Source of the DNA: Candidatus Aminicenantes bacterium
GTDB lineage: Bacteria > Acidobacteriota > Aminicenantia > Aminicenantales > UBA8522
DNA: 64,000 nt
NCBI GenBank assembly: GCA_017886205.1
Contig: JAFNEO010000012.1
Coordinates: 235,207-299,206 of the forward strand
Direction of reading: 5' to 3'
The notes beneath the pieces were generated by a model, which saw only the letters and a program-made list of their open reading frames with translations, was not told the DNA's origin and did not search any database. Position numbers and translations under genes: made by a program. This document shows, piece by piece, positions 14,225-51,479 of this stretch. Each line of letters begins with the position of its first letter. Position 1 is the stretch's first letter.

Positions 14225-15346
14225 ATGAGCTGGTCGATCAAGCTTTTCCGCGTCAAGGGGATCGAGATCCGGGTCCATCTGACTTTTGTCCTGATCCTGA
14301 TCTGGGCCGCGAGCCGCTGGGGAGTGACGATGAAGGGTGGCACGAGGGGCGCGCTCTACGGTGTTCTGGTGATTCTCCTACTCTTTGTCTGCGTAACCAT
14401 CCACGAGCTGGCCCATAGCCTGACGGCGATGCGGTTCGGCGTCAAGGTAAGAAATATCACGCTCCTTCCGATCGGCGGCATCTCTCAGATGGAGGAGATG
14501 CCCAAGAAGCCATCCGAGGAGTTGCGCATGTCACTGGCCGGGCCGCTGAGCAACTTCATTATCGCCGCGGTCCTGCTCCTCCTCTCCATCCCCTTTCATT
14601 TCCAAGCGGAGGTTTCGGCCGCGCGGATGAGCCGGGTCCTGGGTTCGGTGAGCTGGGAGGGGCTCCTGGCCTATCTTATCACGGCCAACATCATGCTCGG
14701 GGTGTTCAACCTCCTGCCGGCCTTTCCCATGGACGGCGGGCGCGTCCTGCGCTCCCTGCTGGCCATGAGGATGGATCATGCCAAGGCGACCTCGGTGGCG
14801 GCCGCGGCCGGACAGGGACTGGCCTGGGTGATGGGACTTATCGGCGTCCTGAACGGCGCCTGGACGCTTGTCATCATCGCCGTTTTCATCTACCTCGGGG
14901 CCGGCCAGGAAGGGCGGATGGTCGAGGTCAAGAACGTGCTCGGCGAGCTGCGGGTGCGGCAGGCCATGACGACGAAGTTTCAGTCCGTGACCCCGGATGA
15001 GCCCTTGTCGCGGGCGGTGGACTTGATCCTGCACGGTTTTCAGACTGTCTTCCCCGTGCTCGAGGAGGGCCGTCTTGCCGGAGTCCTGACCGAGGCCGAC
15101 CTGGTGAGTGCGCTTAAGCACCAGGGACTCGAGGTGGCCGTAAAGATGGCCATGCGCACCGATGTCCCCACCGTCGACCCCGACAGCTCTCTATTCGACG
15201 CCCAACAGCTCATCTCCGAAAAACGGTTGGGCGCGCTGCCGGTAGGCCAGGGGGGGCGGATCATCGGCCTCCTCACTCCCCACGACGTGAGCGAAGCGTA
15301 CCTGTTCCTCTCCTTGAAGCCCGACCTCCTTGCCAAAACCCAATAG
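14225..15346 (+). CDS. Site-2 protease (M50 metallopeptidase) with C-terminal tandem CBS domains
   Basis: HELAHSL HExxH motif, NLLPAFPMDGG (LDG) motif, multiple TM helices, CBS-like C-terminus; SD aggagg upstream of ATG 14225. Confidence 0.8.
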   Translation: MSWSIKLFRVKGIEIRVHLTFVLILIWAASRWGVTMKGGTRGALYGVLVILLLFVCVTIHELAHSLTAMRFGVKVRNITLLPIGGISQMEEMPKKPSEELRMSLAGPLSNFIIAAVLLLLSIPFHFQAEVSAARMSRVLGSVSWEGLLAYLITANIMLGVFNLLPAFPMDGGRVLRSLLAMRMDHAKATSVAAAAGQGLAWVMGLIGVLNGAWTLVIIAVFIYLGAGQEGRMVEVKNVLGELRVRQAMTTKFQSVTPDEPLSRAVDLILHGFQTVFPVLEEGRLAGVLTEADLVSALKHQGLEVAVKMAMRTDVPTVDPDSSLFDAQQLISEKRLGALPVGQGGRIIGLLTPHDVSEAYLFLSLKPDLLAKTQ

Positions 15347-15426
15347 GGGTCAGGTCTCAACATTCAACAATTTAGACTCGATTCCAAGGCTCTGCCCGAT
15401 TTGTTGATTGTTGAGACCTGACCCCC
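15346..15426. repeat. REP-like repeat family A doublet (GGGGTCAGGTCTCAACATTCAACAA ... TTGTTGATTGTTGAGACCTGACCCC)
   Basis: Inverted pair with ~30-nt spacer; copies at 19177, 21903, 28519, 50694 and singleton half-sites elsewhere. Confidence 0.85.
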
Positions 15427-15459
15427 AAATTTTCCAAATTGGATTAAGGAGATGCGCAG

Positions 15460-16404
15460 ATGAATAACGAAGAAATTGTCCAGGCGTGGGCGAAGACAAG
15501 AGGATACCGCGCGGCCGTTGGGAGCGTCTCGCTGCTGGAAGAAGTCCGCAGTGCCCTCCAAAGGCGCCGGGAGGCCGGAGAGATCGAGGCTGGTTTCTAT
15601 CGGGAAAACCTGGATATTTTCACCTACCTTGACGGAGTCCCGCTCGAGAATCCGCAGTCGATTATTCTCGTTGCCGTCCCCGCGCCCGCGCATATTCTGT
15701 CTTTTGTCGTCGGCGATAAAAGGATCGAAACCATTCTCCCTCCGACCTATGCCGGCTACCGGGAAACGTTCGCCGAGGTCAGGGACGACCTCGCGGGAGC
15801 CCTGTCAGGCTCGGGCTTCCGGGTGGAGCTTCTGAACGCTCCGCTCAAGGCGCTGGGAAACCGGCTGGGATTGCTTTCCTATGGCCGGAACAACGTCGGT
15901 TACATCGAGGGCCTGGGAAGTTATTTCCAGCTAGTCGGCCTTGTATCCGACATGCCGTTCGATAAAGAGAGCATGCCTCCCAGGTCGGCGGAGACGCTCC
16001 TACCCAGATGCCGGGAGTGCAGGATCTGTGCGGCGGCCTGCCCGACGGGCGCTATTGACAGGGAAAGGATCCTCCTCCATGCCGAAAGATGCTACACACT
16101 GTTTTCCGAATCGCAGCGACCGATCCCCGAGAACCTCAAGTCCCCGTCCCCGAAGTGCATTATCGGATGTCTGAGATGCCAGGAGCTCTGCCCCGAAAAC
16201 AAGGGCCTGTTGCGGCATGAAAACGCAGCCGTGTCCTTCGATGCAGAGGAGACCAAAGCCTTTCTCGGGATGACGCCGGCGAAGGGCGGCCGGGCCTTCG
16301 ACCGCGCCCAGGCGAAATTTCAGGAACTGGGCTTGACGGAAGGCCTTCCTGTATTTAGACGAAACCTTAAGCGTCTGCTCCGGATCCACGGCGTCATCTC
16401 ATAA
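15460..16404 (+). CDS. 4Fe-4S dicluster protein, QueG (epoxyqueuosine reductase)-like core
   Basis: Two CxxCxxCxxxCP motifs (CRECRICAAACPTGAI; CIIGCLRCQELCPEN) and QueG-like block 'PLKALGNRLGLLSYGRNNVGYIEGLGSYFQLVGLVSDMPF'; shorter than canonical QueG. Confidence 0.45.
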   Translation: MNNEEIVQAWAKTRGYRAAVGSVSLLEEVRSALQRRREAGEIEAGFYRENLDIFTYLDGVPLENPQSIILVAVPAPAHILSFVVGDKRIETILPPTYAGYRETFAEVRDDLAGALSGSGFRVELLNAPLKALGNRLGLLSYGRNNVGYIEGLGSYFQLVGLVSDMPFDKESMPPRSAETLLPRCRECRICAAACPTGAIDRERILLHAERCYTLFSESQRPIPENLKSPSPKCIIGCLRCQELCPENKGLLRHENAAVSFDAEETKAFLGMTPAKGGRAFDRAQAKFQELGLTEGLPVFRRNLKRLLRIHGVIS

Positions 16405-16502
16405 AAAATGGGGGCGGTCCTATTTTTTTTATTTAGCCGGATTATTTCCCGTAGTTGACGCCGCTGGCCGAGGATACTAGGATTTTATCCGCAGGACAAA
16501 CA

Positions 16503-16865
16503 GTGGAATTCGAGCACCGAGTCAAAGGTGTGATCAAGGCGATCCCCCGCGGCAAAGTCGCCACCTACGTTCAGGTCGCCGCTCTCGCCGGAAACCACCG
16601 GGCCGCCCGCCAGGTCGTCCGGGTTCTTCACGCGTCCTCCCACAAGGACCGCCTTCCCTGGCACCGCGTCATCAACAGCCGCGGCGGGATTTCGCTCGGA
16701 CGGGGCCGTGGGTTCGAGGAACAGAGGCGCCTCCTCCTCCAGGAAGGCGTTGACGTTAGCCGCTCGGGCCGCATCGCCCTCGAGGAATTTCAATGGGAAC
16801 CGGAAGGCCTGCGTTCCAGGGCCGTCGCGAAATTCCTCCGTGAGCTCAACCGAGAGGATACATAA
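16503..16865 (+). CDS. Alkyltransferase-like (ATL) protein, MGMT DNA-binding domain with Cys->Trp (PWHRV)
   Basis: 'IPRGKVATYVQVAALAG' and 'LPWHRVINSRGGIS' (PWHRV instead of PCHRV); start placed at GTG 16503 (track start 16455 is TTG). Confidence 0.6.
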   Translation: MEFEHRVKGVIKAIPRGKVATYVQVAALAGNHRAARQVVRVLHASSHKDRLPWHRVINSRGGISLGRGRGFEEQRRLLLQEGVDVSRSGRIALEEFQWEPEGLRSRAVAKFLRELNREDT

Positions 16866-16941
16866 TTCGGTGCCTACCTAATTCGGTGTCAGGCAGCTAA
16901 TTACCGAAATTCTCATTAGTGTATTTAGTTGCCTGGCACCG
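16864..16941. repeat. REP-like repeat family B doublet
   Basis: aattcggtgcctacctaattcggtgtcaggcagctaattaccgaaatt + inverted partial tttagttgcctggcaccg. Confidence 0.8.
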
Positions 16942-16980
16942 TCTTCAGGCACCGTATTAGCAAGCCTAGTCGTTCTGGAC

Positions 16981-17005
16981 TTGTTGATTGTTGAGACCTG
17001 ACCCC
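16981..17005. repeat. REP family A half-site (TTGTTGATTGTTGAGACCTGACCCC)
   Basis: Exact match to conserved family A half. Confidence 0.85.
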
Positions 17006-17040
17006 TAAGTGTGATAATAACCATGTTCTGGAGGGTGAAC

Positions 17041-19128: not shown

Positions 19129-19176
19129 AGCAAACAAAGGCCAAGTCGCAGAAAGTCAAAGTAGGGGTCTCGAAGT

Positions 19177-19246
19177 AGGGGTCAGGTCTCAACAATCAAC
19201 AAATGCGGAGCGACTCTGTCCATTGTTGAATGTTGAGACCTGATAC
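19177..19246. repeat. REP family A doublet
   Basis: ggggtcaggtctcaacaatcaacaa-N20-ttgttgaatgttgagacctgatacc; preceded by partial duplication gtaggggtctc. Confidence 0.85.
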
Positions 19247-19304
19247 CGGAGTACCCCCATTTCCCAATTTTCCAGAACTTCGCCTTGGAATCAAGTTCAG
19301 TAGC

Positions 19305-21902: not shown

Positions 21903-21972
21903 GGGGTCAGGTCTCAACAATCAACAAATCCGGAGCGGTATTTCCAATTGTTAAATGTTGAGACCTGACCCC
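21903..21972. repeat. REP family A doublet
   Basis: ggggtcaggtctcaacaatcaacaa-N21-ttgttaaatgttgagacctgacccc. Confidence 0.85.
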
Positions 21973-24595: not shown

Positions 24596-24712
24596 GCCTC
24601 TGACAGTTCGGTACCTCCCCTCTCTACCCTGAACACGATCGCCTCGTTTTCCGGATTCGGACAATCTTAAGAGCCAATGAGAATATGCGGGGGTCAATTT
24701 CGTCCCGCGGGG

Positions 24713-24789
24713 GAAATTCGCCCATCGCCCGGACGTTCGCACCCGGCTTGCTGACGCCCCGAATTTGTTAATTGTTGAGACCTGACCCC
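24713..24789. repeat. Extended family A unit (~77 nt: GAAATTCGCCCATCGCCCGGACG...GCTGACGCCCCGAATTTGTTAATTGTTGAGACCTGACCCC)
   Basis: ~80% identical over full length to 33367-33449; ends exactly at stop codon of LVIVD gene. Confidence 0.7.
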
Positions 24790-27541: not shown

Positions 27542-27548
27542 ATTGACC

Positions 27549-28439: not shown

Positions 28440-28518
28440 CCTGGTTCTTACCGCTAACAATATTAAGAAAAACGGATTCTGTCAAACGCGGCGGCGCCAA
28501 AGCGCCAAAGGGGCCAAA

Positions 28519-28588
28519 GGGGTCAGGTCTCAACATTCAACAATTGTCAGCGTCGCTCCTGATTTGTTGATTGTTGAGACCTGACCCC
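28519..28588. repeat. REP family A doublet
   Basis: ggggtcaggtctcaacattcaacaa-N20-tttgttgattgttgagacctgacccc. Confidence 0.85.
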
Positions 28589-28653
28589 ATTCAGGGCCTT
28601 GACAAACGGTCTCCCCAAATGTATCTTCTTTGTAGATACATATAGGAGGAGAA

Positions 28654-28896
28654 TTGAGAGGTCGTGTACAGAAATGGGGCAACAGCCTGGCCCTCCGTAT
28701 CCCCAAATCATTCGCGTATGAGATGGGATTGGGACAGAATTCGTCTGTCCAGTTGATGCTCAAAGAAGGAGCGCTTGTCGTGACGCCAGAACACGGACCC
28801 CAATGGCGTCTGGAAGAGCTCCTAGAAAAAGTGACCGAAGATAACATCCATCACGAATGGGAGACCGGATCCGCCGAGGGCGATGAGATATGGTGA
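28654..28896 (+). CDS. mazE: MazE/AbrB-fold antitoxin
   Basis: 'VQKWGNSLALRIPKSFAYEMGL' SpoVT/AbrB swapped-hairpin signature; overlaps downstream toxin. Confidence 0.75.
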   Translation: MRGRVQKWGNSLALRIPKSFAYEMGLGQNSSVQLMLKEGALVVTPEHGPQWRLEELLEKVTEDNIHHEWETGSAEGDEIW

Positions 28897-29234
28897 GTCC
28901 AGGTCCATACATCCCCCGGCGCGGCGATGTCGTCCGGATCACCTTGAATCCTCAAGCTGGCCACGAGCAGGCGGGTCGAAGGCCAGCGGTCATTCTATCG
29001 CCTCACGCCTATAACGCCAAGGTCGGGCTGGCTCTCCTGTGTCCGATTACGAGCCAGGTCAAAGGTTATCCGTTTGAGGTCGCTATCCCCGCAGGATTGC
29101 CTGTTTCCGGCGTGATCTTATCCGACCATGTCAAGAGCATGGATTGGCGCGCCCGAAAAGCCGAATGGGTCTGTTCCTTACCACCACAGACAACAGCCGA
29201 GGTCCTGGCCAAGTCGCAGACATTGCTGACGTAG
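28890..29234 (+). CDS. mazF: MazF/PemK endoribonuclease toxin
   Basis: 'YIPRRGDVVRITLNPQAGHEQAGRRPAVILSP...LLCPITSQVKGYPFEV' PemK/MazF signature; 4-nt overlap with mazE. Confidence 0.8.
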   Translation: MVSPGPYIPRRGDVVRITLNPQAGHEQAGRRPAVILSPHAYNAKVGLALLCPITSQVKGYPFEVAIPAGLPVSGVILSDHVKSMDWRARKAEWVCSLPPQTTAEVLAKSQTLLT

Positions 29235-29456
29235 GCCCATGAATTGACCCATGGCTTTGCCCGAATAAATCCGAGTAAAAGTCACCGAGATCCTATCCGC
29301 TTACTGCGCCACGAGATGCCCGGCCAAGTTCAAGGATAAGGTTCGGTTGGGCTTTAGATTTCGCGGATCTGCTTGCCGAGGTCGAAGCCGACCCTACAGG
29401 GATATTCTGGGGATGAGGAGGAAGCGTTTATCATTGCTTGACTTATAAACAATTAG

Positions 29457-29594
29457 TTGTGAACAACTAGAAATTGTGAACATACCGATCCGTATGTCGA
29501 TCATTTACAAGCCGGTGTCCAGATCATTGAGGAAATTTCCTCTAACAACTCATTTAGGGCTTGACATTTGTTCATATATTTGCTATGTTCACAA
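29457..29594. promoter_or_regulatory. Promoter/operator region: TTGTGAACA x2 direct + 1 inverted (TGTTCACAA), TTGACA-N17-TATGTT promoter
   Basis: Sites at 29457-29465, 29474-29482, 29586-29594; -35 TTGACA 29559-29564. Confidence 0.4.
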
Positions 29595-30676
29595 TAGATG
29601 AAAAGAAAAATAAAGTGAACGCTATCCTAAACAAAACTAATAAAAACATCGAAGAAGAAATATTTCGGCTTGCCATTGAGGCGTTTCGGAAAAATGTCCC
29701 GACGCTAGCCAATATTGAAACGATTAACCTGGAACGCGTTTTCATAGAGGGGTTTCGGCCAGACCGCCAAATAAAAATGACAGTGCAGGGCAAGACTTTG
29801 GATTACTACGCCGAAATAAAAACAAATTTCAAAGAAGCAAATAAATTCCAATTGCTTATGTACAGAGATAAGCTCGACCACCCGCCCCTGGTCATCGCGA
29901 AGTATGTCAATGCCCAGATGGCAGATCAGCTAAAGCAGGACGGTCTGGAGTTCATCGACACTGCCGGCAATGCGTTCGTCAATAATCCTGCATTCTATAT
30001 TTTCGTGAAAGGGAATAGGCCTCCGGAGATACCAGGACAACCGCCACTTGAAAGAGCTTTCAAACCTGCCGGCCTGAGAATGGTTTTTGCCTTCTTATGC
30101 AATCCCGGTTTTGAGAATAGGACCTACCGGGAGATCGCCGCTGCCACAAAGGTCGCACTCGGGACCGTTAACTGGATCATGAAAGATCTGAAAAAACTGG
30201 GCTTTCTTCTGGACATGGGGAGGCGAGGCCAAAAGCTAATCCAAAAAGAGAATTTGCTACAACGATGGGTCATTGCATACCCGGAGCGGCTCAGGCCGAA
30301 GCAGATGCTCGGGCGCTACCGGGGTGATGCTGCCTGGTGGCAACAGAAGACCCTGGACCCGTTGAAAGCACAATGGGGTGGAGAGATTGCTGCCGCCAGA
30401 TTGACACAATATCTAAAACCGGAACTGATAACGATCTATACCGGGCCCCAAGAGATCAATCATCTGTTGTTCGAAAACCGACTCAAAAAAGACACGGCTG
30501 GAGATATCGAAATTCTGGCGAGATTCTGGAAGCCCGTTGAGATGTGGGAATACGGTGACCTAGTCCACCCAATCCTAGTTTATGCCGATCTCCTGGCAAC
30601 GGGAAACCAGAGAAATATAGAAACAGCGAAAATGATCTATGAGCAACATATTATTCGACTTATCAGGGAAGATTGA
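29585..30676 (+). CDS. AbiEi-like putative transcriptional regulator/antitoxin (wHTH-containing), start uncertain (29561/29585/29597)
   Basis: Internal HTH-like segment 'YREIAAATKVALGTVNWIMKDLKKLGFL'; immediately upstream of and overlapping AbiEii-like NTase gene. Confidence 0.4.
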   Translation: MFTIDEKKNKVNAILNKTNKNIEEEIFRLAIEAFRKNVPTLANIETINLERVFIEGFRPDRQIKMTVQGKTLDYYAEIKTNFKEANKFQLLMYRDKLDHPPLVIAKYVNAQMADQLKQDGLEFIDTAGNAFVNNPAFYIFVKGNRPPEIPGQPPLERAFKPAGLRMVFAFLCNPGFENRTYREIAAATKVALGTVNWIMKDLKKLGFLLDMGRRGQKLIQKENLLQRWVIAYPERLRPKQMLGRYRGDAAWWQQKTLDPLKAQWGGEIAAARLTQYLKPELITIYTGPQEINHLLFENRLKKDTAGDIEILARFWKPVEMWEYGDLVHPILVYADLLATGNQRNIETAKMIYEQHIIRLIRED

Positions 30677-31505
30677 TCAGCAGACAGTCGCCGCGCTATC
30701 TGTCGTGAAGAAAATCGCGGACTCCTTGAGTATTCCTTTTTTCGTCGTCGGCGCTTCGGCAAGAGACATCATTCTCAAGTACTGCTACGGAATAGAAACA
30801 CCGAGGATGACCAGAGATATCGACTTGGGAGTTGAGGTCGCAGATTGGGAGCAGTTCGACCAGCTTAGGGAATCATTGCTCTCGACGAGCAAATTCTCTT
30901 CGACGCAGGTACGGCACAGGCTCCGGTTCGATTCTGTCCTCATCGATATCGTTCCTTTCGGCGCAATCACCGACGAGAAAAGACGGATTAGCTGGCTACC
31001 TGAACACGAAATATTCATGAACATGGCTGGTTTAAAGGAGGCCTACGAATATTCGGTTGATGTGAAATTGAGTTCGGTCCCTGAGCTCGATATTAAACTG
31101 CCAACTCTACCAGGCCTAGCGCTCATGAAGTTGATTTCGTGGAAAGAGGGGTATCCGGAGCGCCAGAGAGACGCTGAGGATCTGCTGCTTATCATGGAGA
31201 AATATGAAGAAGCGGGCAACTTTGACAGACTCTACGAAAAAGAGCAGAGCCTGTTGGAGGAAGAGCATTTTGATGCAAGACATGCCAGTATCAGGCTGCT
31301 CGGCCGCGATATGGCTATAATGGCAGATCCTTATACATTGGACACGGTCAGGGCGATATTGAGTGAAGAAACAGGACAACGTTCTCAATATCGATTGATT
31401 ACAGATATGATCAGAGGCATGCTTGCTTCCGATCTCAAATTCGATGAGATTCTCTCTCAGCTAGAGAAGCTGGGACAAGGCCTTGTTGAGGCCTCAAAAA
31501 CATAA
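30639..31505 (+). CDS. AbiEii/AbiGii-family nucleotidyltransferase toxin (DUF1814-like)
   Basis: 'FFVVGASARDIILKY...RMTRDIDLGVEV' minimal NTase hG[GS]...D.D motif resembling GGTAL/RFSEDID of AbiEii; ~288 aa. Confidence 0.55.
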   Translation: MSNILFDLSGKIDQQTVAALSVVKKIADSLSIPFFVVGASARDIILKYCYGIETPRMTRDIDLGVEVADWEQFDQLRESLLSTSKFSSTQVRHRLRFDSVLIDIVPFGAITDEKRRISWLPEHEIFMNMAGLKEAYEYSVDVKLSSVPELDIKLPTLPGLALMKLISWKEGYPERQRDAEDLLLIMEKYEEAGNFDRLYEKEQSLLEEEHFDARHASIRLLGRDMAIMADPYTLDTVRAILSEETGQRSQYRLITDMIRGMLASDLKFDEILSQLEKLGQGLVEASKT

Positions 31506-31517
31506 CCGCTGTACTTC

Positions 31518-32757
31518 TTGTTAACCCCCTGTCCGCCCAGAAGCTTGTATCATATTAAAACAAGCATAACAGCTTGTGTTTCGACCGGAAAAAGAGACAC
31601 GGCAATTTTCACTAGACAGTTAAAAAAGCCTTGCCCGCCACTTCCTCTCCCTAGAAAACTCCCAGGAGCTCTATTACAACTGGGACCTTCGCCAGGTGCG
31701 GGATAGGTATAGGTCTGACTATACTTTCTTTGAGAGCCCGCTGCGAGACGCCAAATCTCGGGGGCGATTGCCCTGGATCTGTTTCGATGAGATCCACAAA
31801 ATGCCGAAATGGAAGAATATTCTCAAGGGTTACTACGACAAATACGAGAACGACTGCCGGTTCATCGTCACCGGCAGCGCCCGGTTAGACTGGTTCCGGC
31901 GGTCCGGAGATTCCCTGGCGGGGCGTTATTTCCTCTTTCGCTTGAATCCTTTAACACTCTCCGAAGTCGCAGGTCACCCGCATCGTGAGCCTGCCCGGGA
32001 TGAAACTGCTCTGGAATTCATTGAGCGAAAGCTGAGCCGGGGCCCCTCCAGGCAGGATCTGATTGATCACCTCCTGCACTACAGCGGGTTTCCCGAACCC
32101 TTCCTCAAGGCGGATGAGACATTCTACCGGCGATGGCAACGGGATATGGTGGATTACCTGACGAGGGAGGACGTTCGCGATCTGACGCGGATTATGGCCG
32201 TTGAGCATATTGCGACATTGATGCAGATCATGCCGGATCGTGTGGGCTCGCCTCTATCGTTGAATGCGCTGACAGAGGACATCGAGGCCAGTTATACTGC
32301 AGTTAAGAACGCTATCTCCGCCATGCAGCTCATCTGTGCCGTTTTTTTGATCTCCCCTTATCACCAGAGAATTGCCCGGGCGGTCAAAAAAGAAAAAAAG
32401 GCCTATTTTTATGATTGGGGCCGCGCCCTCGAGCCGGCGAAGAGATTCGAGAATTATGTCGCCGTCGAGCTCGCCACGATGATCGACCTCTGGCACGATA
32501 AGGGGATCGGCGATTTCGACCTGATGTACGTCCGAACGCGGGACGGCAAAGAAACTGATTTCCTGGTCATGCGGAATCGCCAGCCCTGGTGCCTCTTCGA
32601 GGCCAAACTTCAGGACGACGTTATCGCCCGGCACCATTTCGATCAGGCCAATGCCCTGGGGAACATCCCGTTTCTTCAGGTCACGGGTCAGGATAAGGTC
32701 TTCAAGAGACAGGATTCGCGCTTTTTCCGCATCTCCGCCAGCCGGTTCTTTGCGTGA
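31518..32757 (+). pseudogene. 5'-truncated/frameshifted AAA-ATPase of DUF4143 family
   Basis: ORF 31696-32757 begins at Walker B (WICFDEIHK) and has DUF4143-like 'TGSARLDWFRRSGDSLAGRYFLFRLNPLTLSEV' but lacks Walker A; short overlapping upstream frame (31518-31706) suggests frameshift. Confidence 0.5.
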
Positions 32758-33087: not shown

Positions 33088-33295
33088 GTATCCGATTATC
33101 ATAGAAAGATCCAGGAATAACTATTCTGCCTACAGCCCGGATCTGCCCGGCTGTGTAGCCACGGGCGCAACCATCAAAGAGACTCTCTTGCGAATGAGGA
33201 GTGCGATCAGGTTGCACCTGGAAGGACTCAAGAAAGAAGGAACTGAAATCCTCCAGCCGTCGACGAAAGCTAGATACGTAGAAATCTCCATCTGA
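33080..33295 (+). CDS. hicB: HicB-family antitoxin
   Basis: 'YPIIIERSRNNYSAYSPDLPGCVATGATIKETL' UPF0150/HicB N-domain; GTG start with SD gggagg, overlaps hicA end. Confidence 0.7.
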   Translation: MYRYPIIIERSRNNYSAYSPDLPGCVATGATIKETLLRMRSAIRLHLEGLKKEGTEILQPSTKARYVEISI

Positions 33296-33366
33296 TTTTT
33301 CCGCCTCACCAACTCTAGAAATGGGGGAAAAATAGGACCGTCCCCATTTTGATTCCATCCGCAGGA

Positions 33367-33449
33367 GAAATTGGACCACCGCCCATCGCCCGGACGCTCG
33401 CGGCGGTATGCTGATGCTCCGGATTTGTTGATTGTTGAGACCTGACCCC
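33367..33449. repeat. Extended family A unit (second copy of ~80-nt element)
   Basis: GAAATTGGACCACCGCCCATCGCCCGGACGCTCGC...GCTGATGCTCCGGATTTGTTGATTGTTGAGACCTGACCCC. Confidence 0.7.
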
Positions 33450-33534
33450 GCGCACTGCTCCCCACGCCTTGAGAATTTTTGCCAATTAACTCCGTCTATA
33501 TAACCGGAGCCCGCAAAGCGCGGAAAAGCGCGAT

Positions 33535-33563
33535 TTGACAATTGGTACAATGAATAGTACAAT
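33535..33563 (+). promoter_or_regulatory. sigma70-like promoter TTGACA-N17-TACAAT for phd-relE pair (short leader)
   Basis: TTGACA 33535-33540, TACAAT 33558-33563, ATG at 33580. Confidence 0.4.
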
Positions 33564-33579
33564 TCAGCCGCAACACCAA

Positions 33580-33843
33580 ATGGACAAAGTCATCGGCATC
33601 GCCAAGCTCCGCAATTCGCTGGCCTCAATCATCAAGGATGTGACCAGGGGGTCTCATTACATCATCGTCCAGAGATCAAAGGCCAAAGCGGTTCTTCTCA
33701 GCCCAGAAGAGGTTGAGACACTTGAGGTCCTGGCTGACCGGAGGCTGCTGGAAGAGATCCTGGAAGCGAAGAAAGACATTCTTGAAGGCAGGTTCGCAAC
33801 CTACGAAGATTTTTTTGCCAAGAAACTACCTGAAAAACGCTGA
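33580..33843 (+). CDS. Phd/YefM-family antitoxin
   Basis: 'MDKVIGIAKLRNSLASIIKDVTRGSHYIIVQRSKAKAVLLSPEEVETLE' Phd/YefM signature. Confidence 0.75.
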   Translation: MDKVIGIAKLRNSLASIIKDVTRGSHYIIVQRSKAKAVLLSPEEVETLEVLADRRLLEEILEAKKDILEGRFATYEDFFAKKLPEKR

Positions 33844-33851
33844 ATTTCTGG

Positions 33852-34106
33852 ATGGCCCTTTTTCTAACCCGCACTTTCCAGAAGAACTTTCTTCGACTTC
33901 CCAAAAACAGCCAATCCAAGGTTGAGGCCGCTCTGAGAGAGATCCATTCAAACCCCCTTGCCGGGAAAAAGCTTCTCGGGGATCTCGAAGGCGAATTTTC
34001 GTTTCGAATCGGTGCCTACAGAATTATCTATTTCATCGATCAAGAGAAGAACATTTGGGTTGAAACCGTCCGGCACCGAAAGGAAGTCTATAAAAGGCTC
34101 AAGTAA
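33852..34106 (+). CDS. RelE/ParE-family toxin
   Basis: 'FSFRIGAYRIIYFIDQEKNIWVETVRHRKEVY' RelE/ParE C-terminal signature. Confidence 0.75.
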   Translation: MALFLTRTFQKNFLRLPKNSQSKVEAALREIHSNPLAGKKLLGDLEGEFSFRIGAYRIIYFIDQEKNIWVETVRHRKEVYKRLK

Positions 34107-34143
34107 TTCGGTGCCAGGCAGCTAATTACCGAAATTCTAATAG
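34105..34143. repeat. REP family B copy
   Basis: aattcggtgccaggcagctaattaccgaaattctaatagc, begins at relE stop codon. Confidence 0.8.
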
Positions 34144-34415
34144 CTTCCCTGACGGGTTTCCGCGGCTATCATGAAGACGATCTTTTTCTCTTCATCCACT
34201 TCATAGAAGAACCGCTGTGGGCCGATTCTGTATCGCCATGTCTCCGGCTTGTAGCCTCTCAACTTCCTGATGTTTTTCCCAAAATAGGGCTGGGCTTTCA
34301 ATTGCGGATAAACGTATTCATGAAGCTTTTTCGTCAACTTCTCCTGCCTCGGACCTAGATTCCTTTGGAGGTCTTCCTGAAACTGCTCAGTCTCGAATAT
34401 ACGATACTCACTCAA
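34137..34415 (-). CDS. RelE/ParE-family toxin
   Basis: 'KLRGYKPETWRYRIGPQRFFYEVDEEKKIVFMIAAETR' signature. Confidence 0.7.
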   Translation of the reverse strand: MSEYRIFETEQFQEDLQRNLGPRQEKLTKKLHEYVYPQLKAQPYFGKNIRKLRGYKPETWRYRIGPQRFFYEVDEEKKIVFMIAAETRQGSY

Positions 34416-34650
34416 CGAATCGACCTTTTATCCGTTTGGCTTGTTCACTGCCGGTCTTCAACCTCTCCAACAGATTCTTGTTGTTGAGGATCTCCTCCAT
34501 CTCAAATTCATCAGCGAACAACTCCTCTTCGATTTGTTTGAGTGCCAGTGTCTCGATGGCATTGGCCAGCGTTCGATTCTCGGCCTTGGCAAAGGCTTGA
34601 AAAAGACGGAAATCCTCGTCGCTCAGGCGCAGGGTGATCGTCTTGGGCAT
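34408..34650 (-). CDS. Ribbon-helix-helix (CopG-like) antitoxin
   Basis: MPKTITLRLSDEDFRLFQAFAKAENRTLANAIETLAL...; internal ATG of spurious 328-aa track ORF; overlaps relE start by 8 nt. Confidence 0.65.
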   Translation of the reverse strand: MPKTITLRLSDEDFRLFQAFAKAENRTLANAIETLALKQIEEELFADEFEMEEILNNKNLLERLKTGSEQAKRIKGRFVE

Positions 34651-34810
34651 GATGCAATATCCTTCCTTTTGATTCATTTTGATTCTATTTGCTTCATTTC
34701 GCTTTGTCAAGCTCATTCCGGTCCTTGTTCCAAAAGGAAGGTCCATATTGACCAACGAATTGGAAGCGGAGGATATCCCAACGTTTTTGAACGTTCTTGT
34801 CTCCCTAGGA

Positions 34811-34837
34811 TTTGTTGATTGTTGAGACCTGACCCCC
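34811..34837. repeat. REP family A half-site
   Basis: tttgttgattgttgagacctgaccccc. Confidence 0.85.
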
Positions 34838-34854
34838 TGTCCGTTAACCCCCAA

Positions 34855-34912
34855 TCCGCGGCGTAAACTTTTGTTGACATGACCCCAACATAATGTTATT
34901 TTGGTCCGGCGC
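34855..34912 (+). promoter_or_regulatory. Promoter module copy 1 (AACCCCCAATCCGCGGCGTAAACTTTTGTTGACA-N17-TATTTT, extended TG -10)
   Basis: Same ~45-nt module recurs at 51470-51530 and 56417-56472. Confidence 0.55.
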
Positions 34913-42958: not shown

Positions 42959-42967
42959 CGCTGTCTC

Positions 42968-44218: not shown

Positions 44219-44221
44219 GGC

Positions 44222-46527: not shown

Positions 46528-46629
46528 GGTTTCACCCTTTTAGACATCGGCACTGTCTATTATATACTACGAAAGACTGGAGAAATGGTTCACTGTAGCG
46601 ATCGTTTTGATTCAGAACCCGGGGGAAGG

Positions 46630-46944
46630 TCAGTCCATATCCAGGGCGAAGCGGATGGCCTTATGGATCTCCTCCATTTTCCGCTCCGAAAGCCGGGCGA
46701 TTCTCGATTCCAGATAGGCCTTGGGAATCGTCAGCATCGAATCGCAATTCACGGCGCACGGCTTGGGGAGTCCGTCCTCCAACCCGAGAGAAACCTCGGC
46801 GGCGATTCCGCGGACGGTCGTCGTCACGGGCGCCACGGTGACTGCCGTCCTCACGGGATAGGCTTCGTCCCGGCTGAGGAGGACGACGGGCCTTCGCCCG
46901 GCCGGCGGTTTCAGCCGGGCCCACCAGACCTCGCCTTTTTTCAA
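46630..46944 (-). CDS. MazF/PemK-like toxin
   Basis: 'KKGEVWWARLKPPAGRRPVVLLSRDEAY' PemK-like N-terminus. Confidence 0.65.
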   Translation of the reverse strand: MKKGEVWWARLKPPAGRRPVVLLSRDEAYPVRTAVTVAPVTTTVRGIAAEVSLGLEDGLPKPCAVNCDSMLTIPKAYLESRIARLSERKMEEIHKAIRFALDMD

Positions 46945-47198
46945 GTCCAGTCCTCTTCTGACATGGACTCGGCCGACGTGCCGGCCATGGCCTCGGCGAT
47001 GGAGGCGTCCTCGGGCTTTTGACGATACCCGTTTTCGTACTCTCTCACCAATCGTTCCCTTTCGCGCGCTTCCTTCCAGGCGCGGAACGTTGCTAAAAGA
47101 AAGCCGCTGCGGCTCAATCCGGCTTTTCTGCGAATGGTCTCCAATTCCTTAAATTCCTCCCATGGGATACTGACGGCGAATTTGGCGGATTTTCTCAT
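46941..47198 (-). CDS. Ribbon-helix-helix antitoxin
   Basis: 'KFAVSIPWEEFKELETIRRKAGLSRSGFLLATFRAW' CopG-like; overlaps toxin start. Confidence 0.6.
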   Translation of the reverse strand: MRKSAKFAVSIPWEEFKELETIRRKAGLSRSGFLLATFRAWKEARERERLVREYENGYRQKPEDASIAEAMAGTSAESMSEEDWT

Positions 47199-47269
47199 GA
47201 CCAAGACCTGCTTCTTTCGGGTATTACCATGATAATACCGGAGTATTCCTATTGTCAAGTCGCAGATCG

Positions 47270-47390
47270 CGATTCAGTTCCGCCTTCGCCCGCGCGCTCG
47301 GCTTTTCCTCCGAATTCATCTCCCTCCTCGAGGCCGATAAAAGAGCGCCGTCCCTCGCCGCCCTGAACAAGATCGCCGCGTTGAAAAAGG
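47270..47390 (+). pseudogene. Remnant (~40 codons) of a third XRE-ImmA regulator gene copy
   Basis: Translates to FARALGFSSEFISLLEADKRAPSLAALNKIAAL, near-identical to residues ~20-55 of 51557 and 56507 products. Confidence 0.6.
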
Positions 47391-47549
47391 GTAATAAGAT
47401 CACACCGGCCTGAGAATTCATCTTCATATCCCGCGTCTTTTGAGTATGTTGATATTTGTTCCCGGCTCGAGCTTAGCAGGGCGCAAAATGTGTACGCAAG
47501 TGTTGACACATTTGGCTGTAATGATAAAATATCTCTTAAGGTGATCACC

Positions 47550-47816
47550 ATGAAGATGGCGGGCATTCGTGAAGTCCGGGCAAAATGCGCCGGCTATCTT
47601 GGCGGTTCCGAGCCTTTCCTGGTCACAAAACACGGGAAGGTCTCGGGTGTGTACATCCCGCTCGAATCTCCGGATCGGTTGCCCGACGATTGGCGCCGGG
47701 AAATCGGCAAGAGCCTGAGCCATTATCTCGCCAGGCTGCTGGAATTGAAGGGAATCACTGAGCGAGACGTTGGAGAGGATTTCCGTGCCTTTAGAGGCAG
47801 TCGTCGCCGACGCTAA
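47550..47816 (+). CDS. Phd/YefM-like (VapB-position) antitoxin
   Basis: 'MKMAGIREVRAKCAGYLGGSEPFLVTKHGKVSGVYIPLES'; SD aaggtga; overlaps PIN gene. Confidence 0.55.
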   Translation: MKMAGIREVRAKCAGYLGGSEPFLVTKHGKVSGVYIPLESPDRLPDDWRREIGKSLSHYLARLLELKGITERDVGEDFRAFRGSRRRR

Positions 47817-48207
47817 CGTTCTTCTTTCAGCGGTCATCGGAAAAGCCGCGCAAAAAATATTTTCAGAGCATAACCTTAAAGTCCATGCCTCAGAATTCAA
47901 TGCGAGCGAAGTCGGGGAATACCTGCCTGTCATGGCTAGAAAATATGCGCTGCCGGTGAATCTTGTCGTCTTGCGCTGGAGACTCCTCCCGCTGATCATC
48001 CATCCAGCTTCTGAATACGCCGGGCATTATAAAAAGGCATTAGCGGACCTAAAGGATCGAGATCCTGAGGATGCGCATGCGCTGGGGCTGGCCCGCGCGT
48101 TGAATTGTCCTCTGTGGTCGAATGATCGCCATCTGGCCAAATTCGAAGTCGCCTGTTACACGACGGCCCGGCTGCTCAAAATCCTGGAAATGCCGAAAGG
48201 ACGATAA
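47770..48207 (+). CDS. PIN-domain toxin (VapC-like)
   Basis: 'VVADANVLLSAV' N-terminal Asp block and 'WSNDRHL' C-terminal acidic block typical of PIN. Confidence 0.65.
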   Translation: MERISVPLEAVVADANVLLSAVIGKAAQKIFSEHNLKVHASEFNASEVGEYLPVMARKYALPVNLVVLRWRLLPLIIHPASEYAGHYKKALADLKDRDPEDAHALGLARALNCPLWSNDRHLAKFEVACYTTARLLKILEMPKGR

Positions 48208-48210
48208 GCC

Positions 48211-48248
48211 CGACGCCCCGAATTTGTTAAGTGTTAAGACCTGACCCC
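48211..48248. repeat. Degenerate REP family A half-site
   Basis: cgacgccccgaatttgttaagtgttaagacctgacccc. Confidence 0.7.
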
Positions 48249-48307
48249 GAAGGACCGAAGGAGGGCAATCCTTTAGCCTGGCGGTTATAATTGCCCTGGA
48301 AAAGGCG

Positions 48308-48937
48308 ATGACGCTGGTCAAGGAATATAAAGCCTACAGAAGAGCGTACAGGGAGATGAATCATAAAATTATGGAGAAGTATCTGAAGCATGATCAGCTT
48401 TTGAGATCAGCCAAGTTGCTCGGCGTTGTCCAGAGGGGCACTATGGTGTTCGAAAATGAGGAGGAAACAAACGTTTTGATGGATTTCGCCTTACATGAAT
48501 ATCGAGAGCACGACAAGAATGCAATCGCCCTCTACAGGGAGAAAATCGGCGGAGAGAGCGCCATGGAGAGGGCAATTTTGAACGCTCTGCTTTCCTCACA
48601 CACGTCATTGTTTAGAATTAGCGCTGTCTCGCCGTCAGAAAGTATCACGTCCTTAAGAGACCTCCTGAGTGAAGGGCAGCCGGTCAGACTCTTGGATATC
48701 GGCCTCAGCCAGTGCGCCACTCCAGGCTTCTTGATATTTGTCAGGCTCGTTCCATACAAGGACATGTTCATAACCTCCGGGATATCTTTCGTTTTTCCTC
48801 CCGGCCTGGAGAGATGTCTTCTTGGGAAGTATGAGGAGTTGTGCGGAAAAACCGAACCGGATGGGCTCTCGCTGGAGAGGTTTGTTTACTTTTTCAGGAG
48901 GAGCCGCGAAGATGGCCTGAGAGTCATTTATCAGTGA
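48308..48937 (+). CDS. Hypothetical protein (209 aa)
   Basis: Uninterrupted ORF in AT-richer accessory segment; no recognised motifs. Confidence 0.35.
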   Translation: MTLVKEYKAYRRAYREMNHKIMEKYLKHDQLLRSAKLLGVVQRGTMVFENEEETNVLMDFALHEYREHDKNAIALYREKIGGESAMERAILNALLSSHTSLFRISAVSPSESITSLRDLLSEGQPVRLLDIGLSQCATPGFLIFVRLVPYKDMFITSGISFVFPPGLERCLLGKYEELCGKTEPDGLSLERFVYFFRRSREDGLRVIYQ

Positions 48938-49028
48938 ACCTGAGCCATCAAGCGATCCTTATTACTTCATCTGTTTTGATCTTGCTTTATTCTAATAAAC
49001 GATTTTTAAATGAAAGAAAGAGTGCGCT

Positions 49029-49340
49029 ATGTGGTCGAAAAAGGAAAAGGACATTGCCCGGCGGGCTTTTGAGATGGCCCTGGAGAGAGAAGGCTTAGAG
49101 CTTTTAAGAAAGATCAAAGAGATGGCGCGTACGGCCGAGAATCGTAAAGATATCTGGCAGATCCACGATTTCCTCACGGAGAGAAGAACCGAAATCGATC
49201 AAAAGTATGATTATCGATATTCAGTGCTCATTCCTATTTTCGGCAGATTGGTCCGCGAAGAATGGATTAGACTCGATGAGCTTGAGGGTCTTGACGAAGA
49301 TAAAATCACGAAAATTAAAATAATGGCGAGTTTGGAGTAA
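49029..49340 (+). CDS. Hypothetical small protein (103 aa)
   Basis: ORF only. Confidence 0.3.
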   Translation: MWSKKEKDIARRAFEMALEREGLELLRKIKEMARTAENRKDIWQIHDFLTERRTEIDQKYDYRYSVLIPIFGRLVREEWIRLDELEGLDEDKITKIKIMASLE

Positions 49341-49453
49341 CCCATGGCTTTCATGGATCTGCTTGCCGAAGGCGAGGCCGGCAATAGAGCGCTGTCTTTC
49401 GCCACTCTCCATTTCCCTGTTATCGAATCGCCTTGGCCGCATCCGCTCGATGC

Positions 49454-49825
49454 TCACCTATATCGGCTGAGAATTCTCTCTCTATCCTCGTTCTCTTTGT
49501 CACCCTTGTAGTAAATTTCGATGAGCTCGACCCGATCCATTTCCTCGAAATAGGCATATACCACTCGAATTCCGGAATGGGCTCCTTTTCCTTTGAGCGC
49601 CCGGCAAGCGAATTTCCGGCCCTTGTAAACCTTTGGTCCTTGAATGCCAAGCTCCGCCATCTGCACAACCCCTTTGTTGTCAATCCTCAACTTATGGAAG
49701 AGTCCGAGCTCTGTGTTGATGAAATTGTCCAGGTCATCCTCTAGGGACCGGAACCTCTTGAGGAGCCTCTTCATGTCCCGCTCGAATTCCGGCAAGCGAA
49801 TAATTTCCTTAAACGGCGTCATCAT
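49454..49825 (-). CDS. RelE/ParE/HigB-like toxin (Gp49-like)
   Basis: C-terminal 'GIRVVYAYFEEMDRVELIEIYYKGDKE' toxin-fold signature; overlaps upstream antitoxin gene. Confidence 0.5.
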   Translation of the reverse strand: MMTPFKEIIRLPEFERDMKRLLKRFRSLEDDLDNFINTELGLFHKLRIDNKGVVQMAELGIQGPKVYKGRKFACRALKGKGAHSGIRVVYAYFEEMDRVELIEIYYKGDKENEDRERILSRYR

Positions 49826-50591
49826 ACTCCCGGACTGAATAAGCCGGTGCCCTGTAAAATACGGATTCGTACTCGATCGTTTTTCCCTCCTCAGTGGTCA
49901 GCCAGGGAACGTCGTTATGGGAATAATCAGTGATCTGACGGGCGTTCATGTCGGATAGCCTCCCCAGGACGTCGTTAATGATCTCTATCTCGCTGCCTTT
50001 CAACATGTTCAGGTCTGGCTTTCTCAGAGGCAGGTACTTTCTCTGAGGATATTCAAAATAATTCGCCTTAACTTCGACAATCACCCCATTAGCCATCATT
50101 TGATCCACGATTTTCCTGAATTCAAGGGGCGTCGGCCCATATTTGTTCTTCAGGTAAGTGGCGCCCATGAGCTGCTCCTCATACTTCTCGTAATAGTCAA
50201 AATCGATGAAATATAGGAGCTTATAAATGACCGTTTCGCCGATGGCGGGTTTTGCTCCCACCTTGTTGAGGATATAGATCAGTACTTCCTTGAATTTCCG
50301 GAGGTTCTTCTGGGGGATGTTAATTCTCATCCGGGGCATCGCTTCGGATCCATAGGCTTCCCGGCTTTCTCTGATCACGATTTGCGGCTCTTTATCTGGA
50401 TCGAGCAGGGTGTCCACAGACAGATTGAAGATTCCAGCTAATTTCCTAAGCTCCTCGGCGCACACCTTTCTCTCTCCGTTCTCAATCTGAGATATAGACG
50501 GGCGTGAAACACCGAGTTTCTCAGCCAAGGCCTGTTGGCTTAATCCAGTGGACTCGCGGATTTGCTTTATTCTTTGACCTAATGAATCCAT
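49809..50591 (-). CDS. HTH-XRE + Panacea (DUF4065/SocA-like) domain antitoxin
   Basis: N-terminal 'IKQIRESTGLSQQALAEKLGVSRPSISQIENGER' XRE HTH; C-terminal block 'VIYKLLYFIDFDYYEKYEEQLMGATYLKNKYGPTPLEF' resembling Panacea domain. Confidence 0.5.
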   Translation of the reverse strand: MDSLGQRIKQIRESTGLSQQALAEKLGVSRPSISQIENGERKVCAEELRKLAGIFNLSVDTLLDPDKEPQIVIRESREAYGSEAMPRMRINIPQKNLRKFKEVLIYILNKVGAKPAIGETVIYKLLYFIDFDYYEKYEEQLMGATYLKNKYGPTPLEFRKIVDQMMANGVIVEVKANYFEYPQRKYLPLRKPDLNMLKGSEIEIINDVLGRLSDMNARQITDYSHNDVPWLTTEEGKTIEYESVFYRAPAYSVREYDDAV

Positions 50592-50693
50592 ATTTCACTC
50601 CTAGGTTATAATTATAGATATGTTGGATAATATGTCAAGGCTATGTAAGAATATCGGACAAATCGAACCAGCAAGATATAGAGGGCAAAGACA

Positions 50694-50764
50694 GGGGATC
50701 AGGTCTGAATTCTTAACAAATTGAGGCGCCCCCTAGGATTTTTTGATTGTTGAGACCTGACCTC
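50694..50764. repeat. Degenerate REP family A doublet
   Basis: ggggatcaggtctgaattcttaacaa-N22-ttttgattgttgagacctgacc. Confidence 0.7.
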
Positions 50765-50922
50765 AAAAATCGATAATCCCCCCCGCGGCCGAGGCGGTAC
50801 GGTCGTCTTTATCCCACCTCTCCCCGAACTCAAGGAAACAAGCGAATACCTTATGAAATCCGGTTTCCGTCCGCTGTCTTGAAATAGCGGAACTCTTGTT
50901 TTATTAGGGCTTATCCGCTCAC

Positions 50923-51114
50923 TCACTGGCCGGGCGGAGGGATCTCCAGATCCCGACAGATCTTGCGCGCTAAAAAATCGTTTATTTCGGCATGTCTTGG
51001 CACTGTCGAAACCTTATATGTCCTTTCATTCAGATAAACCGAGTGGCTCCTGCCTTCCCGGAGCATAACGCATCCGTGTGCCTCCAGGAATCGGATCAAC
51101 TCCCTGCGCTTCAT
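50923..51114 (-). CDS. hicA: HicA-family toxin
   Basis: 'MKRRELIRFLEAHGCVMLREGRSHSVYLN' HicA signature. Confidence 0.7.
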   Translation of the reverse strand: MKRRELIRFLEAHGCVMLREGRSHSVYLNERTYKVSTVPRHAEINDFLARKICRDLEIPPPGQ

Positions 51115-51329
51115 GAAAGAGGGACTTCAATTTTTTCCCGAATGACGCTTTTGTCCGCGATTTCCTGCTCCGCGAGCTTTTTGTTGGCTTCTAGGACTAA
51201 GCAGACGGCTTCTCGAAGATTCCGGCGAGCTTCACTCAAGGTTTTTCCTTGCGTATTCGCCCCGGGCAATTCTTCTACAAAACCGACGTAGCCTTCCGGC
51301 ACCTTCATAAAGACGGCCGTGAACGACAT
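51111..51329 (-). CDS. hicB: HicB-family antitoxin
   Basis: 'MSFTAVFMKVPEGYVGFVEELPGANTQGKTLSEARRNLREAV'; SD agaggtg; overlaps hicA. Confidence 0.65.
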   Translation of the reverse strand: MSFTAVFMKVPEGYVGFVEELPGANTQGKTLSEARRNLREAVCLVLEANKKLAEQEIADKSVIREKIEVPLS

Positions 51330-51454
51330 CTTTGCACCTCTATTATGAATAGACGCTTTTCCTGCGGGTTTTCTCATTTTTTCCCTCGCCAGTTTAATAT
51401 ATCACAATTTCTCAAGGAATCATGGCCGAGCGCCTAAAGATCAGCAAAACGGAC

Positions 51455-51479
51455 TTATTGATTGTTGAAACCTAACCCC
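51455..51479. repeat. Degenerate REP family A half-site
   Basis: ttattgattgttgaaacctaacccc. Confidence 0.6.

Follow-up and report, generated by a model that had tools for sequence, protein, structure and literature searches.

A dense family of 25-nucleotide repeats in an Aminicenantes genome: probable terminal inverted repeats of a TIRYT element

The stretch analysed here (the window) comprises 64,000 nucleotides of a Candidatus Aminicenantes genome (assembly GCA_017886205.1, contig JAFNEO010000012.1, positions 235,207 to 299,206) and contains, between its genes, numerous copies of a short repeat, family A, which a first-pass annotation had likened to repetitive extragenic palindromic (REP) elements and their doublets (REPINs). 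The window was searched with the 25-mer GGGGTCAGGTCTCAACAATCAACAA at up to three mismatches, and 15 matches were obtained, compared with none in the 100 dinucleotide-preserving shuffles that served as control; relaxing the threshold to six mismatches added a sixteenth, decayed arm at 50695. Family A is thus real, as had been claimed, with 16 arms at 11 intergenic sites and a chance expectation of none. The consensus of the arm reads GGGGTCAGGTCTCAACA[A/T]TCAACAA, and there are clean inverted doublets at four of the 11 sites, a decayed doublet at one and solo arms at six, with a density of about one arm per 4 kb across 36 kb.

The doublets are asymmetric, in that a "canonical" arm (..CAACAATCAACAA with an inner extension of about 10 nt) is paired with a "variant" arm (..CAACATTCAACAA), and both orientations of this pair are found in the window. 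The variant arm lies on the left in the doublet at 15346-15425 (variant arm 15346-15370, spacer of 30 nt, canonical arm 15401-15425) and in that at 28519-28588, and on the right at 19178-19247 (canonical arm 19178-19202; variant arm 19223-19247 with three mismatches and the tip GGTATC) and at 21903-21972 (canonical arm 21903-21927, variant arm 21948-21972). A fifth doublet at 50695-50764, which the first-pass annotation had counted together with these four, is degenerate, with six mismatches in its left and two in its right arm. The six solo arms all point the same way, as described before, and read TTGTTG...GACCCC, i.e. TTGTTGATTGTTGAGACCTGACCCC, on the plus strand. Three of them are perfect canonical arms (16981-17005, with the tip rightward; 33425-33449; 34812-34836), one canonical arm carries a single mismatch (24765-24789), and the arms at 48224-48248 and 51455-51479, the latter decayed, have three mismatches each. 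The canonical arm at 24765 has a conserved inner extension (the whole feature spanning 24692-24789), and the extension at 33425 (33380-33449) is akin to that at 24719. An 80-nt conserved unit proposed for 24713-24789 and 33367-33449 proved partly right: about 65 nt inward of the arm are held in common (CGCCCATCGCCCGGACG...). The positions given earlier agree with ours except for three that were off by one, 19177, 24764 and 34811 being corrected to 19178, 24765 and 34812.

Folded as single-stranded DNA, the clean doublets form 25-bp hairpins with a conserved internal mismatch at -22 to -28 kcal/mol and z-scores of -7.5 to -10, i.e. -25.4 kcal/mol (z -7.9) at 15346, -21.9 kcal/mol (z -7.8) at 19178, -22.2 kcal/mol (z -7.5) at 21903 and -27.8 kcal/mol (z -10.1) at 28519; strong hairpins had been suggested for them. 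The decayed doublet reaches only z -1.6. The mismatch, at position 18 of the stem, is kept in 44 of 48 doublets, where one strand has T·T and the other A·A. Of four solo arms folded together with their upstream flank, three behaved like shuffled sequences (z -0.2 at 16981, and -0.1 and +0.8), and the z of -2.7 for the fourth region (34772-34836) comes from a small hairpin in the flank and not from the arm. The arm itself is neither self-complementary nor palindromic, and doublets alone fold. A proposed role of the hairpins as terminators was not supported, because a scan of the window for intrinsic terminators gave 31 terminator-like sites, none of which is a doublet, and because the doublets have loops of 20-30 nt and no T-tract. 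A structured RNA was rejected as well, since family A has no match in Rfam at gathering thresholds and its conservation lies in the sequence and is not compensatory.

The distribution of the family was assessed with an exact 22-mer of the canonical arm in a species-representative genome collection, to which the genome of the window does not belong. The 22-mer matched 72 stretches, and the loci fetched from these matches are referred to by L-numbers. About 40 of the 72 belong to a single metagenome-assembled genome (MAG), CAYGXD01, contig 2 of which is collinear with the window at approximately 75-88% nucleotide identity; CAYGXD01 therefore represents a sister species of the organism of the window. 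Its label "uncultured Eubacteriales" is doubtful given the identities to MAGs of Aminicenantales, the window being 82-86% identical to contigs of such MAGs (L012, L034) at 34137-34780 and 46629-49838; an Aminicenantes-like (Acidobacteriota) organism is also the probable source of the window by this comparison. The other matches come from MAGs labelled Geobacteraceae/Desulfuromonadales, other Deltaproteobacteria, Omnitrophota, Aminicenantes, Syntrophaceae and Pirellulales, and all matched stretches share the layout of variant arm, variable spacer and canonical arm. Since matches are spread over many loci of CAYGXD01 and occur in other genomes, family A is genome-wide, intergenic and not confined to this locus, in agreement with the first-pass annotation. 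Viral contigs scanned with a 16-mer gave four matches, which does not exceed a rough chance estimate for an assumed collection size, and a phage vehicle was rejected for lack of any such excess. A literature search for the arm sequence itself found no paper.

A gene associated with the arms was sought by all-against-all clustering of the proteins and open reading frames (ORFs) in the 72 loci. A single family, Y1, recurs beside arms in different phyla and has a member in the window, and no other recurrent partner was found in these loci. The proteins of L014 and L009 were assigned by Pfam to Y1_Tnp (IS200-like HUH transposase) fused to a helix-turn-helix (HTH) resembling Bac_DnaA_C. In L014, which belongs to the sister MAG CAYGXD01, a gene for 347 aa lies between perfect arms at 6150-6174 and 7356-7380, with the tips outward, so that a probable mobiliser, lying outside the window as had been suspected and RAYT-like (RAYT, REP-associated tyrosine transposase), was indeed found between half-sites in a sister genome. 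The same layout is seen in L009 (Omnitrophota; unit 3493-4543) and, at the one end covered, in L065 (Geobacteraceae), where the arm encodes the C-terminus of the protein (..LLIVET*). A metagenome scan with an alignment of L014-, L009- and L065-type proteins returned 80 loci; the homologues in metagenomes number 560. Among the 14 closest homologues, 13 have one or more GGGGTCAGGTCTC.AC... arms next to the gene, and an arm is present on either side wherever the flank suffices. Thirteen inverted pairs of 0.92-1.23 kb (L014, L009 and 11 metagenome loci) enclose the Y1 transposase gene, which is the only gene found between the arms in all 13 full elements.

The HUH motif NHYHL and the motif of the catalytic tyrosine, Y.HLNP[VI]RAG, are conserved in the aligned proteins. 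A profile of three of these sequences matched 4ER8 (TnpA-REP of E. coli) best in the PDB (E = 1.6e-5) and DnaA domain IV second, with a weak match to TnpA of the ISDra2/IS200 type (2XM3, E = 0.16); phmmer with a single protein gave no match against the PDB. NF047646, the RAYT family of NCBIfam, was the only or top match, at 57.0, 58.5 and 75.7 bits and hence under its cut-off of 80. Although the proteins of L014, L009 and L065 are mutually only 30-37% identical, their arms are the same 25-mer.

For statistics on tips and flanks, 150 arms were collected across loci. The tip GGGGTCAG is invariant in at least 146 of them, and the conservation of the arm ends at about 27 nt. L065 (510-649) and L066 (1-140) share 140 identical bases, which comprise the 3' end of the transposase gene and the arm, and diverge exactly after GACCCC; the arm tip is the element boundary. 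Both contigs stem from MAGs of one study, labelled Geobacteraceae and Nanosynbacter, and may represent the same element in two contexts or a mis-binned contig. Target-site duplications, sought as direct repeats of 2-8 nt, were found at none or one of 44 doublets, and at most two of the 13 full elements share merely a 2-5-nt repeat. This absence rules out a miniature inverted-repeat transposable element (MITE) of the DDE type and fits the single-strand chemistry of Y1 enzymes.

In 22 of the 150 arms (15%), 5-16 nt of the flank and the first approximately 7 nt of the arm (GGGGTCA) are duplicated in tandem, compared with a background of 2.2% for an extra GGGGT in the same position. Two of these tip stutters lie in the window, one at 19150-19177 (AAGTAGGGGTCTCG, then AAGTA, immediately ahead of the arm beginning GGGGTCAGG) and one ahead of the doublet at 28519 (CAAAGGGGCCAAA; 28497-28518, or 28497-28588 with the doublet). 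Longer stutters include 19-25 nt of the arm or, in L009, about 250 nt of the element end, and larger nested duplications of this end are seen at 4551-5099 of L009. The process is recent, as two contigs of the sister MAG (L025 19-80 and L067 2199-2253) are identical over 2217 nt save for one 19-nt stutter unit. Mis-joining between variable enzyme cuts is one explanation and slippage at the foot of the hairpin another; the known cuts of TnpA-REP fall at CT or CA dinucleotides whose distance from the REP varies on either side (PMC8266576). The canonical arms of the window point to the right in nine and to the left in two cases, and the counts become 14 and 3 when non-orthologous arms from the collinear contig are included (two-sided binomial, approximately 0.013). 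Across all loci, no relation was found between the orientation of arms and that of the flanking genes.

Comparison with the sister genome at two orthologous doublets revealed arms that are better conserved than their surroundings. The doublet at 15346-15425 and its orthologue in L018 agree in 50 of 50 arm positions and 17 of 30 spacer positions, and that at 28519-28588 and its orthologue in L035 in 50 of 50 and 14 of 20, so that all 100 arm nucleotides are identical while the spacers reach 57% and 70% and the flanks 45-67%. The solo arm at 24765 has an orthologue in L056 (5524-5548) with 86 of 100 upstream positions identical, and the solo arm at 34812 is orthologous to the right arm of a doublet in L035. 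At the sites corresponding to the solo arms at 16981 and 48224, full doublets are present in L022 and L057, respectively. At other orthologous slots between genes, one genome has a family-A doublet where its counterpart has a different repeat, and these differences indicate a turnover of slot contents. The synteny with L035 stops precisely at 28588, an arm tip, and resumes approximately 15-20 nt past the arm tip at 33449; between these points the window has a block of 4.9 kb of its own (28589-33449), with MazEF, AbiE and an AAA ATPase gene, and the alternative cargo of L035 has no arm at its end.

The closest counterparts in the literature are RAYT-like genes flanked by inverted repeats other than REPs, which were named TIRYTs, and their units TIRtrons, by Di Nocera 2013 (PMC3733652). 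In that survey, these terminal inverted repeats (TIRs) share the motif GGGGWSAS, copies of them are dispersed as singles, dimers and clusters, and the TIRYTs include a sharply defined group in Acidobacteria (PMC3733652). In the classification of Quentin 2018, such proteins fall into subclass 2.1, of which the 2.1.2 members bear Bac_DnaA_C or HTH tails (HTH_23 or HTH_28), and REP-like repeats were not found near genes of this subclass (PMC6006769). The domains Y1_Tnp and Bac_DnaA_C of the L014 and L009 proteins agree with the architecture of subclass 2.1.2. Since the tip GGGGTCAG of family A fits the motif and is nearly invariant, and since the arms bound a gene for Y1 and HTH domains in relatives, we consider it probable that family A is the TIR family of a TIRYT element, with doublets and solo arms as its non-autonomous derivatives. 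The doublets would be gene-less miniatures of the TIRtron and the solo arms single canonical ends. The resemblance extends to the placing of a RAYT-like Y1 gene between non-palindromic inverted repeats, to the Bac_DnaA_C-like tail of its product, to an arm that may overlap the 3' end of the gene, to the additional dispersal of arms as singles, dimers and clusters and to the reported group in Acidobacteria. In contrast, the density of family A is high, whereas TIRYTs were judged "less productive" than RAYTs and suggested seldom to build repeat families in the 2013 survey (PMC3733652), and the relevant parts of the two surveys do not mention a regular 70-nt hairpin doublet with a fixed mismatch, an identical 25-mer arm across phyla or polymorphic tip stutters. 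What is new here is thus a dense example of a kind of element already known yet uncharacterised, and the family is re-filed from REP/REPIN with an unknown RAYT to the TIR family of a TIRYT with hairpin-forming miniatures.

Under this reading, the full element would measure approximately 1.0-1.2 kb and consist of two arms of 25-27 nt (GGGGTCAGGTCTCAACA[A/T]TCAACAA[A/T]T), tips outward, around one Y1/HUH gene, the product of which would be a relative of RAYTs with a C-terminal HTH resembling DnaA domain IV. The doublets of the window (70-80 nt) would keep both arms around a short spacer that evolves fast. From a gene elsewhere in the genome, a TIRYT would bind the arms, cut and rejoin single-stranded DNA at the tips, and spread copies to A/T-rich positions between genes without duplicating the target; many of these positions are gene ends, where an insertion can supply a stop codon through a TA|GGGG junction that makes TAG. 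Y1 catalysis would, as TnpA-REP and IS608 suggest by analogy, probably act on the doublet hairpin in single-stranded DNA, and the arm would be a strongly constrained recognition sequence, which the HTH domain may hold; we infer the binding, cleavage and transfer by the TIRYT from the same analogy. The signs of such movement are indirect and consist of the turnover of slots between relatives, the element of L065 and L066 that may sit in two contexts and the stutter polymorphism. The mismatch at position 18 recalls the stem bulge needed by TnpA-REP of E. coli and the mismatched bases read by the transposases of IS608 and ISDra2. Promoters, RNA ends, hot spots of rearrangement and any other consequences for the host would be secondary. 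It is conceivable, though we regard it as unlikely, that the arm tip serves as an HUH nick-and-join site in a one-ended, rolling-circle-like reaction, by which the DNA that begins 3' of one tip and reaches to the following one is copied or transferred and re-inserted beside a resident tip. This would explain the stutters, the nested end duplications of L009 and the co-oriented arrays of solo arms between toxin-antitoxin and other cargo, and the system would then be an integron-like cassette shuffler without an integrase.

Several observations weigh against the assignment to a TIRtron. Homologues that are 45-64% identical to the L014 protein bear ..ATTTGACAT arms while those of 30-37% identity share the exact arm, so the inner half of the arm does not follow the phylogeny of the protein, and tblastn in the 64-kb window finds no cognate TIRYT gene but only the gene at 8790-9461 described below. 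Every catalytic step is an analogy, as no biochemical study of any TIRYT was found in the literature searched. Perfect arms at old orthologous sites are unusual for decaying selfish copies and hint at selection at the host level or gene conversion, and a simple decay of doublets would not lead one to expect solo arms biased to a single type and orientation.

Other mobile systems were weighed against this background. A classical REP/REPIN population kept by a bona fide RAYT, as in E. coli, Pseudomonas and Stenotrophomonas, would also combine a Y1/HUH enzyme of the same superfamily, whose gene lies between its own inverted repeats, with gene-less intergenic hairpin doublets that lack target duplications and have a conserved mismatch or bulge in the stem; the associated protein has RAYTs as its nearest relatives by NF047646 and 4ER8, and a TAG or ATAG often ahead of the arm tip recalls the GTAG (or CGTC) tag of REPs. 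However, REPs are GTAG-tagged palindromes of 20-40 nt, whereas single arms of family A neither form palindromes nor fold, and the enzyme has an added HTH domain, stays at 57-76 bits below the RAYT equivalog cut-off of 80 and would fall on the other side of the published classification, which sets TIR-flanked TIRYTs apart from REP-flanked RAYTs (PMC3733652, PMC6006769). We therefore judge a REP/REPIN population to be very unlikely, and the term REPIN used in the first-pass annotation to be an analogy and not a membership. With IS200/IS605 elements and the PATEs that are their miniature derivatives, family A would share single-strand Y1 chemistry, and it has in common with them the lack of target duplications and the presence of miniature non-autonomous copies. 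A replication-strand bias is expected for Y1 elements, as in IS200/IS605, and an orientation bias is seen in family A, but the ends of IS200/IS605 are different subterminal hairpins and not terminal inverted repeats, and the similarity to their TnpA is weak. The doublets might instead be MITEs of a DDE transposon, e.g. of the Tn3 family, as the arms are 25-bp terminal inverted repeats that start with GGGGTC, like many Tn3-family ends. This reading, whether for Tn3-type or other DDE MITEs, is effectively refuted by the absent target duplications and hardly deserves credence, the more so as the conservation stops at about 27 nt with no ..TAAG end at positions 35-38, and as a Y1 transposase is the gene between the arms in 13 of 13 full elements.

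The arrangement of the arms could also be taken for that of a cassette system, in which arms are sites of recombination or nicking, cargo with one arm is inserted beside a resident tip in an integron-like or HUH rolling-circle, one-ended fashion, and repetition builds co-oriented arrays. The common orientation of all six solo arms and the excess of canonical arms in one direction would follow, the block 28589-33449 starts from a resident tip and has an arm of its own at the far end, toxin-antitoxin modules are reordered in relatives with arms at some junctions, and the stutters resemble minimal units of flank plus tip. Integron attC sites, moreover, share with the doublets imperfect inverted repeats around a variable centre, folding of the single strand, the vicinity of toxin-antitoxin modules and the co-orientation of several copies. 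By contrast, Pfam finds no recombinase or integrase domain in the approximately 58 window ORFs scanned (those of 1-8.7 kb and 9.5-11.8 kb being outside the scan), the arm sequence is conserved over 25 nt, solo arms are partnerless and unstructured, doublets occur in both orientations and arms also lie between syntenic core genes, and across loci the orientation is unrelated to flanking genes. Modules with the arm as a fixed part were not borne out either, since module boundaries are inconsistent among the relatives compared and the alternative cargo in L035 lacks an end arm. We consider such a cassette system quite improbable, and attC sites proper were rejected in view of the ordinary syntenic neighbours, the lack of an integrase and the Y1 gene between arms. 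The suggestion that family-A copies are recombination seams is weakly supported: synteny does break at 28588 and near 33449, but arms are inconsistent in modules and also separate core genes. Alternatively, arms and doublets may be kept chiefly for a service to the host, as protein-binding sites, protectors of RNA 3' ends, attenuators or promoter parts, with a merely historical link to the transposase. Arms that remain perfect at orthologous sites while spacers and flanks diverge, the conservation of the arm across phyla with proteins of 30-37% identity, a -35-like box supplied by one arm at 16991 and intergenic positions hugging stop codons would be in line with this. The doublets, however, are not terminator-like, have no Rfam match and no consistent orientation to neighbouring genes, the contents of slots turn over between close relatives, and a recognition sequence of a transposase accounts for the conservation of the arm equally well; a predominant host function is accordingly given little weight. 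A Xer/dif-like site, a DNA-uptake sequence and a transcription-factor operator, judged from sequence, were rejected because they leave the arm-bounded transposase gene unexplained.

TIRYTs are a large and widespread branch of the HUH Y1 enzymes, and the probable TIRtron family described here offers for their study a dense TIR family, a cognate gene in a sister genome and exact boundaries. The doublet, a hairpin of 70 nt in which a T·T or A·A mismatch is fixed, is available as a candidate substrate, and the stutter polymorphisms may be traces left by the reaction. In genome annotation, the assignment accounts for a recurrent 25-mer in MAGs of several phyla, where the arms cause contig breaks and confusion of bins.

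The window itself does contain a Y1_Tnp/RAYT-like gene (8790-9461, minus strand, 223 aa), which lacks the HTH tail and has a G+C content at third codon positions (GC3) below that of its neighbours. The first-pass annotation had seen no RAYT flanked by family A, which is correct, but a RAYT-like gene is nevertheless present and is bounded by inverted copies of another repeat family, AATTCGGTGCCAGGCATCTAATT, at 8729-8751 and 9568-9590. More copies of this other family, each a small weak hairpin, lie at 7594, 16880, 16930 and 34105. By its position, the gene belongs to this other family and not to family A, and 8729-9590 looks like a REPtron or TIRtron of its own.

The contacts of arms with stop codons that had been pointed out are real at 15346, 24789, 34812 and 48224. 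The M50-CBS peptidase gene (14195-15346) and the variant arm share one base, the final G of the TAG stop being also the first G of the arm. At 24789, the arm tip and the TAG stop of the minus-strand LVIVD gene have 1 nt in common, the ORF 34441-34818 terminates within the arm at 34812, and the stop of a PIN/VapC-like gene lies 17 nt ahead of the arm at 48224. The outer flank of the arms is A/T-rich and frequently ATA or TA; TA precedes GGGG, which then reads TAG, in 40 of 150 arms, and GTAG proper in only a few. That the TA|GGGG junction reads TAG explains why the tips at 15346 and 24789 adjoin or overlap the ends of genes.

Ordinary genes lie between the copies (M50-CBS peptidase, ferredoxin-like protein, MGMT, S9 peptidase, Ser/Thr kinases with TPR repeats, P-type ATPase and LVIVD protein), and numerous toxin-antitoxin and abortive-infection modules follow beyond 28.6 kb. 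These are dense at 28620-34818 and 46630-51377 and include MazEF, AbiEi/AbiEii, Phd/ParE, ParE-like, PemK, PIN, HTH-SocA/Panacea and UPF0150; homologous modules are found in different order in L054, L012, L034 and L057 at 76-90% nucleotide identity. Shortly upstream of the S9 peptidase gene, the solo-arm sequence TTGAGA, followed after 16 nt by TG-GATAAT, forms a promoter-like site (16991-17018), of which the sister genome has the same -10 box and, owing to a 20-nt insertion, another -35 box. A further promoter-like repeat, AAGTCCGCGGCGTAAACTTTTGTTGACAT, followed after about 17 nt by TATAT/TATTTT, occurs in the window at 34854-34902, 51482-51530 and 56424-56472 and in L054 at 4209-4233. Two of its copies precede paralogous HTH_3 and Peptidase_M78 (ImmA/IrrE-like) genes (51557-52651 and 56507-57568), another is followed by a Ser/Thr kinase gene, and two lie directly behind a family-A arm. 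Finally, the region 58000-63316 has the appearance of a foreign or defence-type island. It is low in G+C (0.41 at 58-60 kb; GC3 0.39), and its products are a methyltransferase, a DUF499 protein of 972 aa, a DUF7680 protein and a protein of 341 aa without known function.

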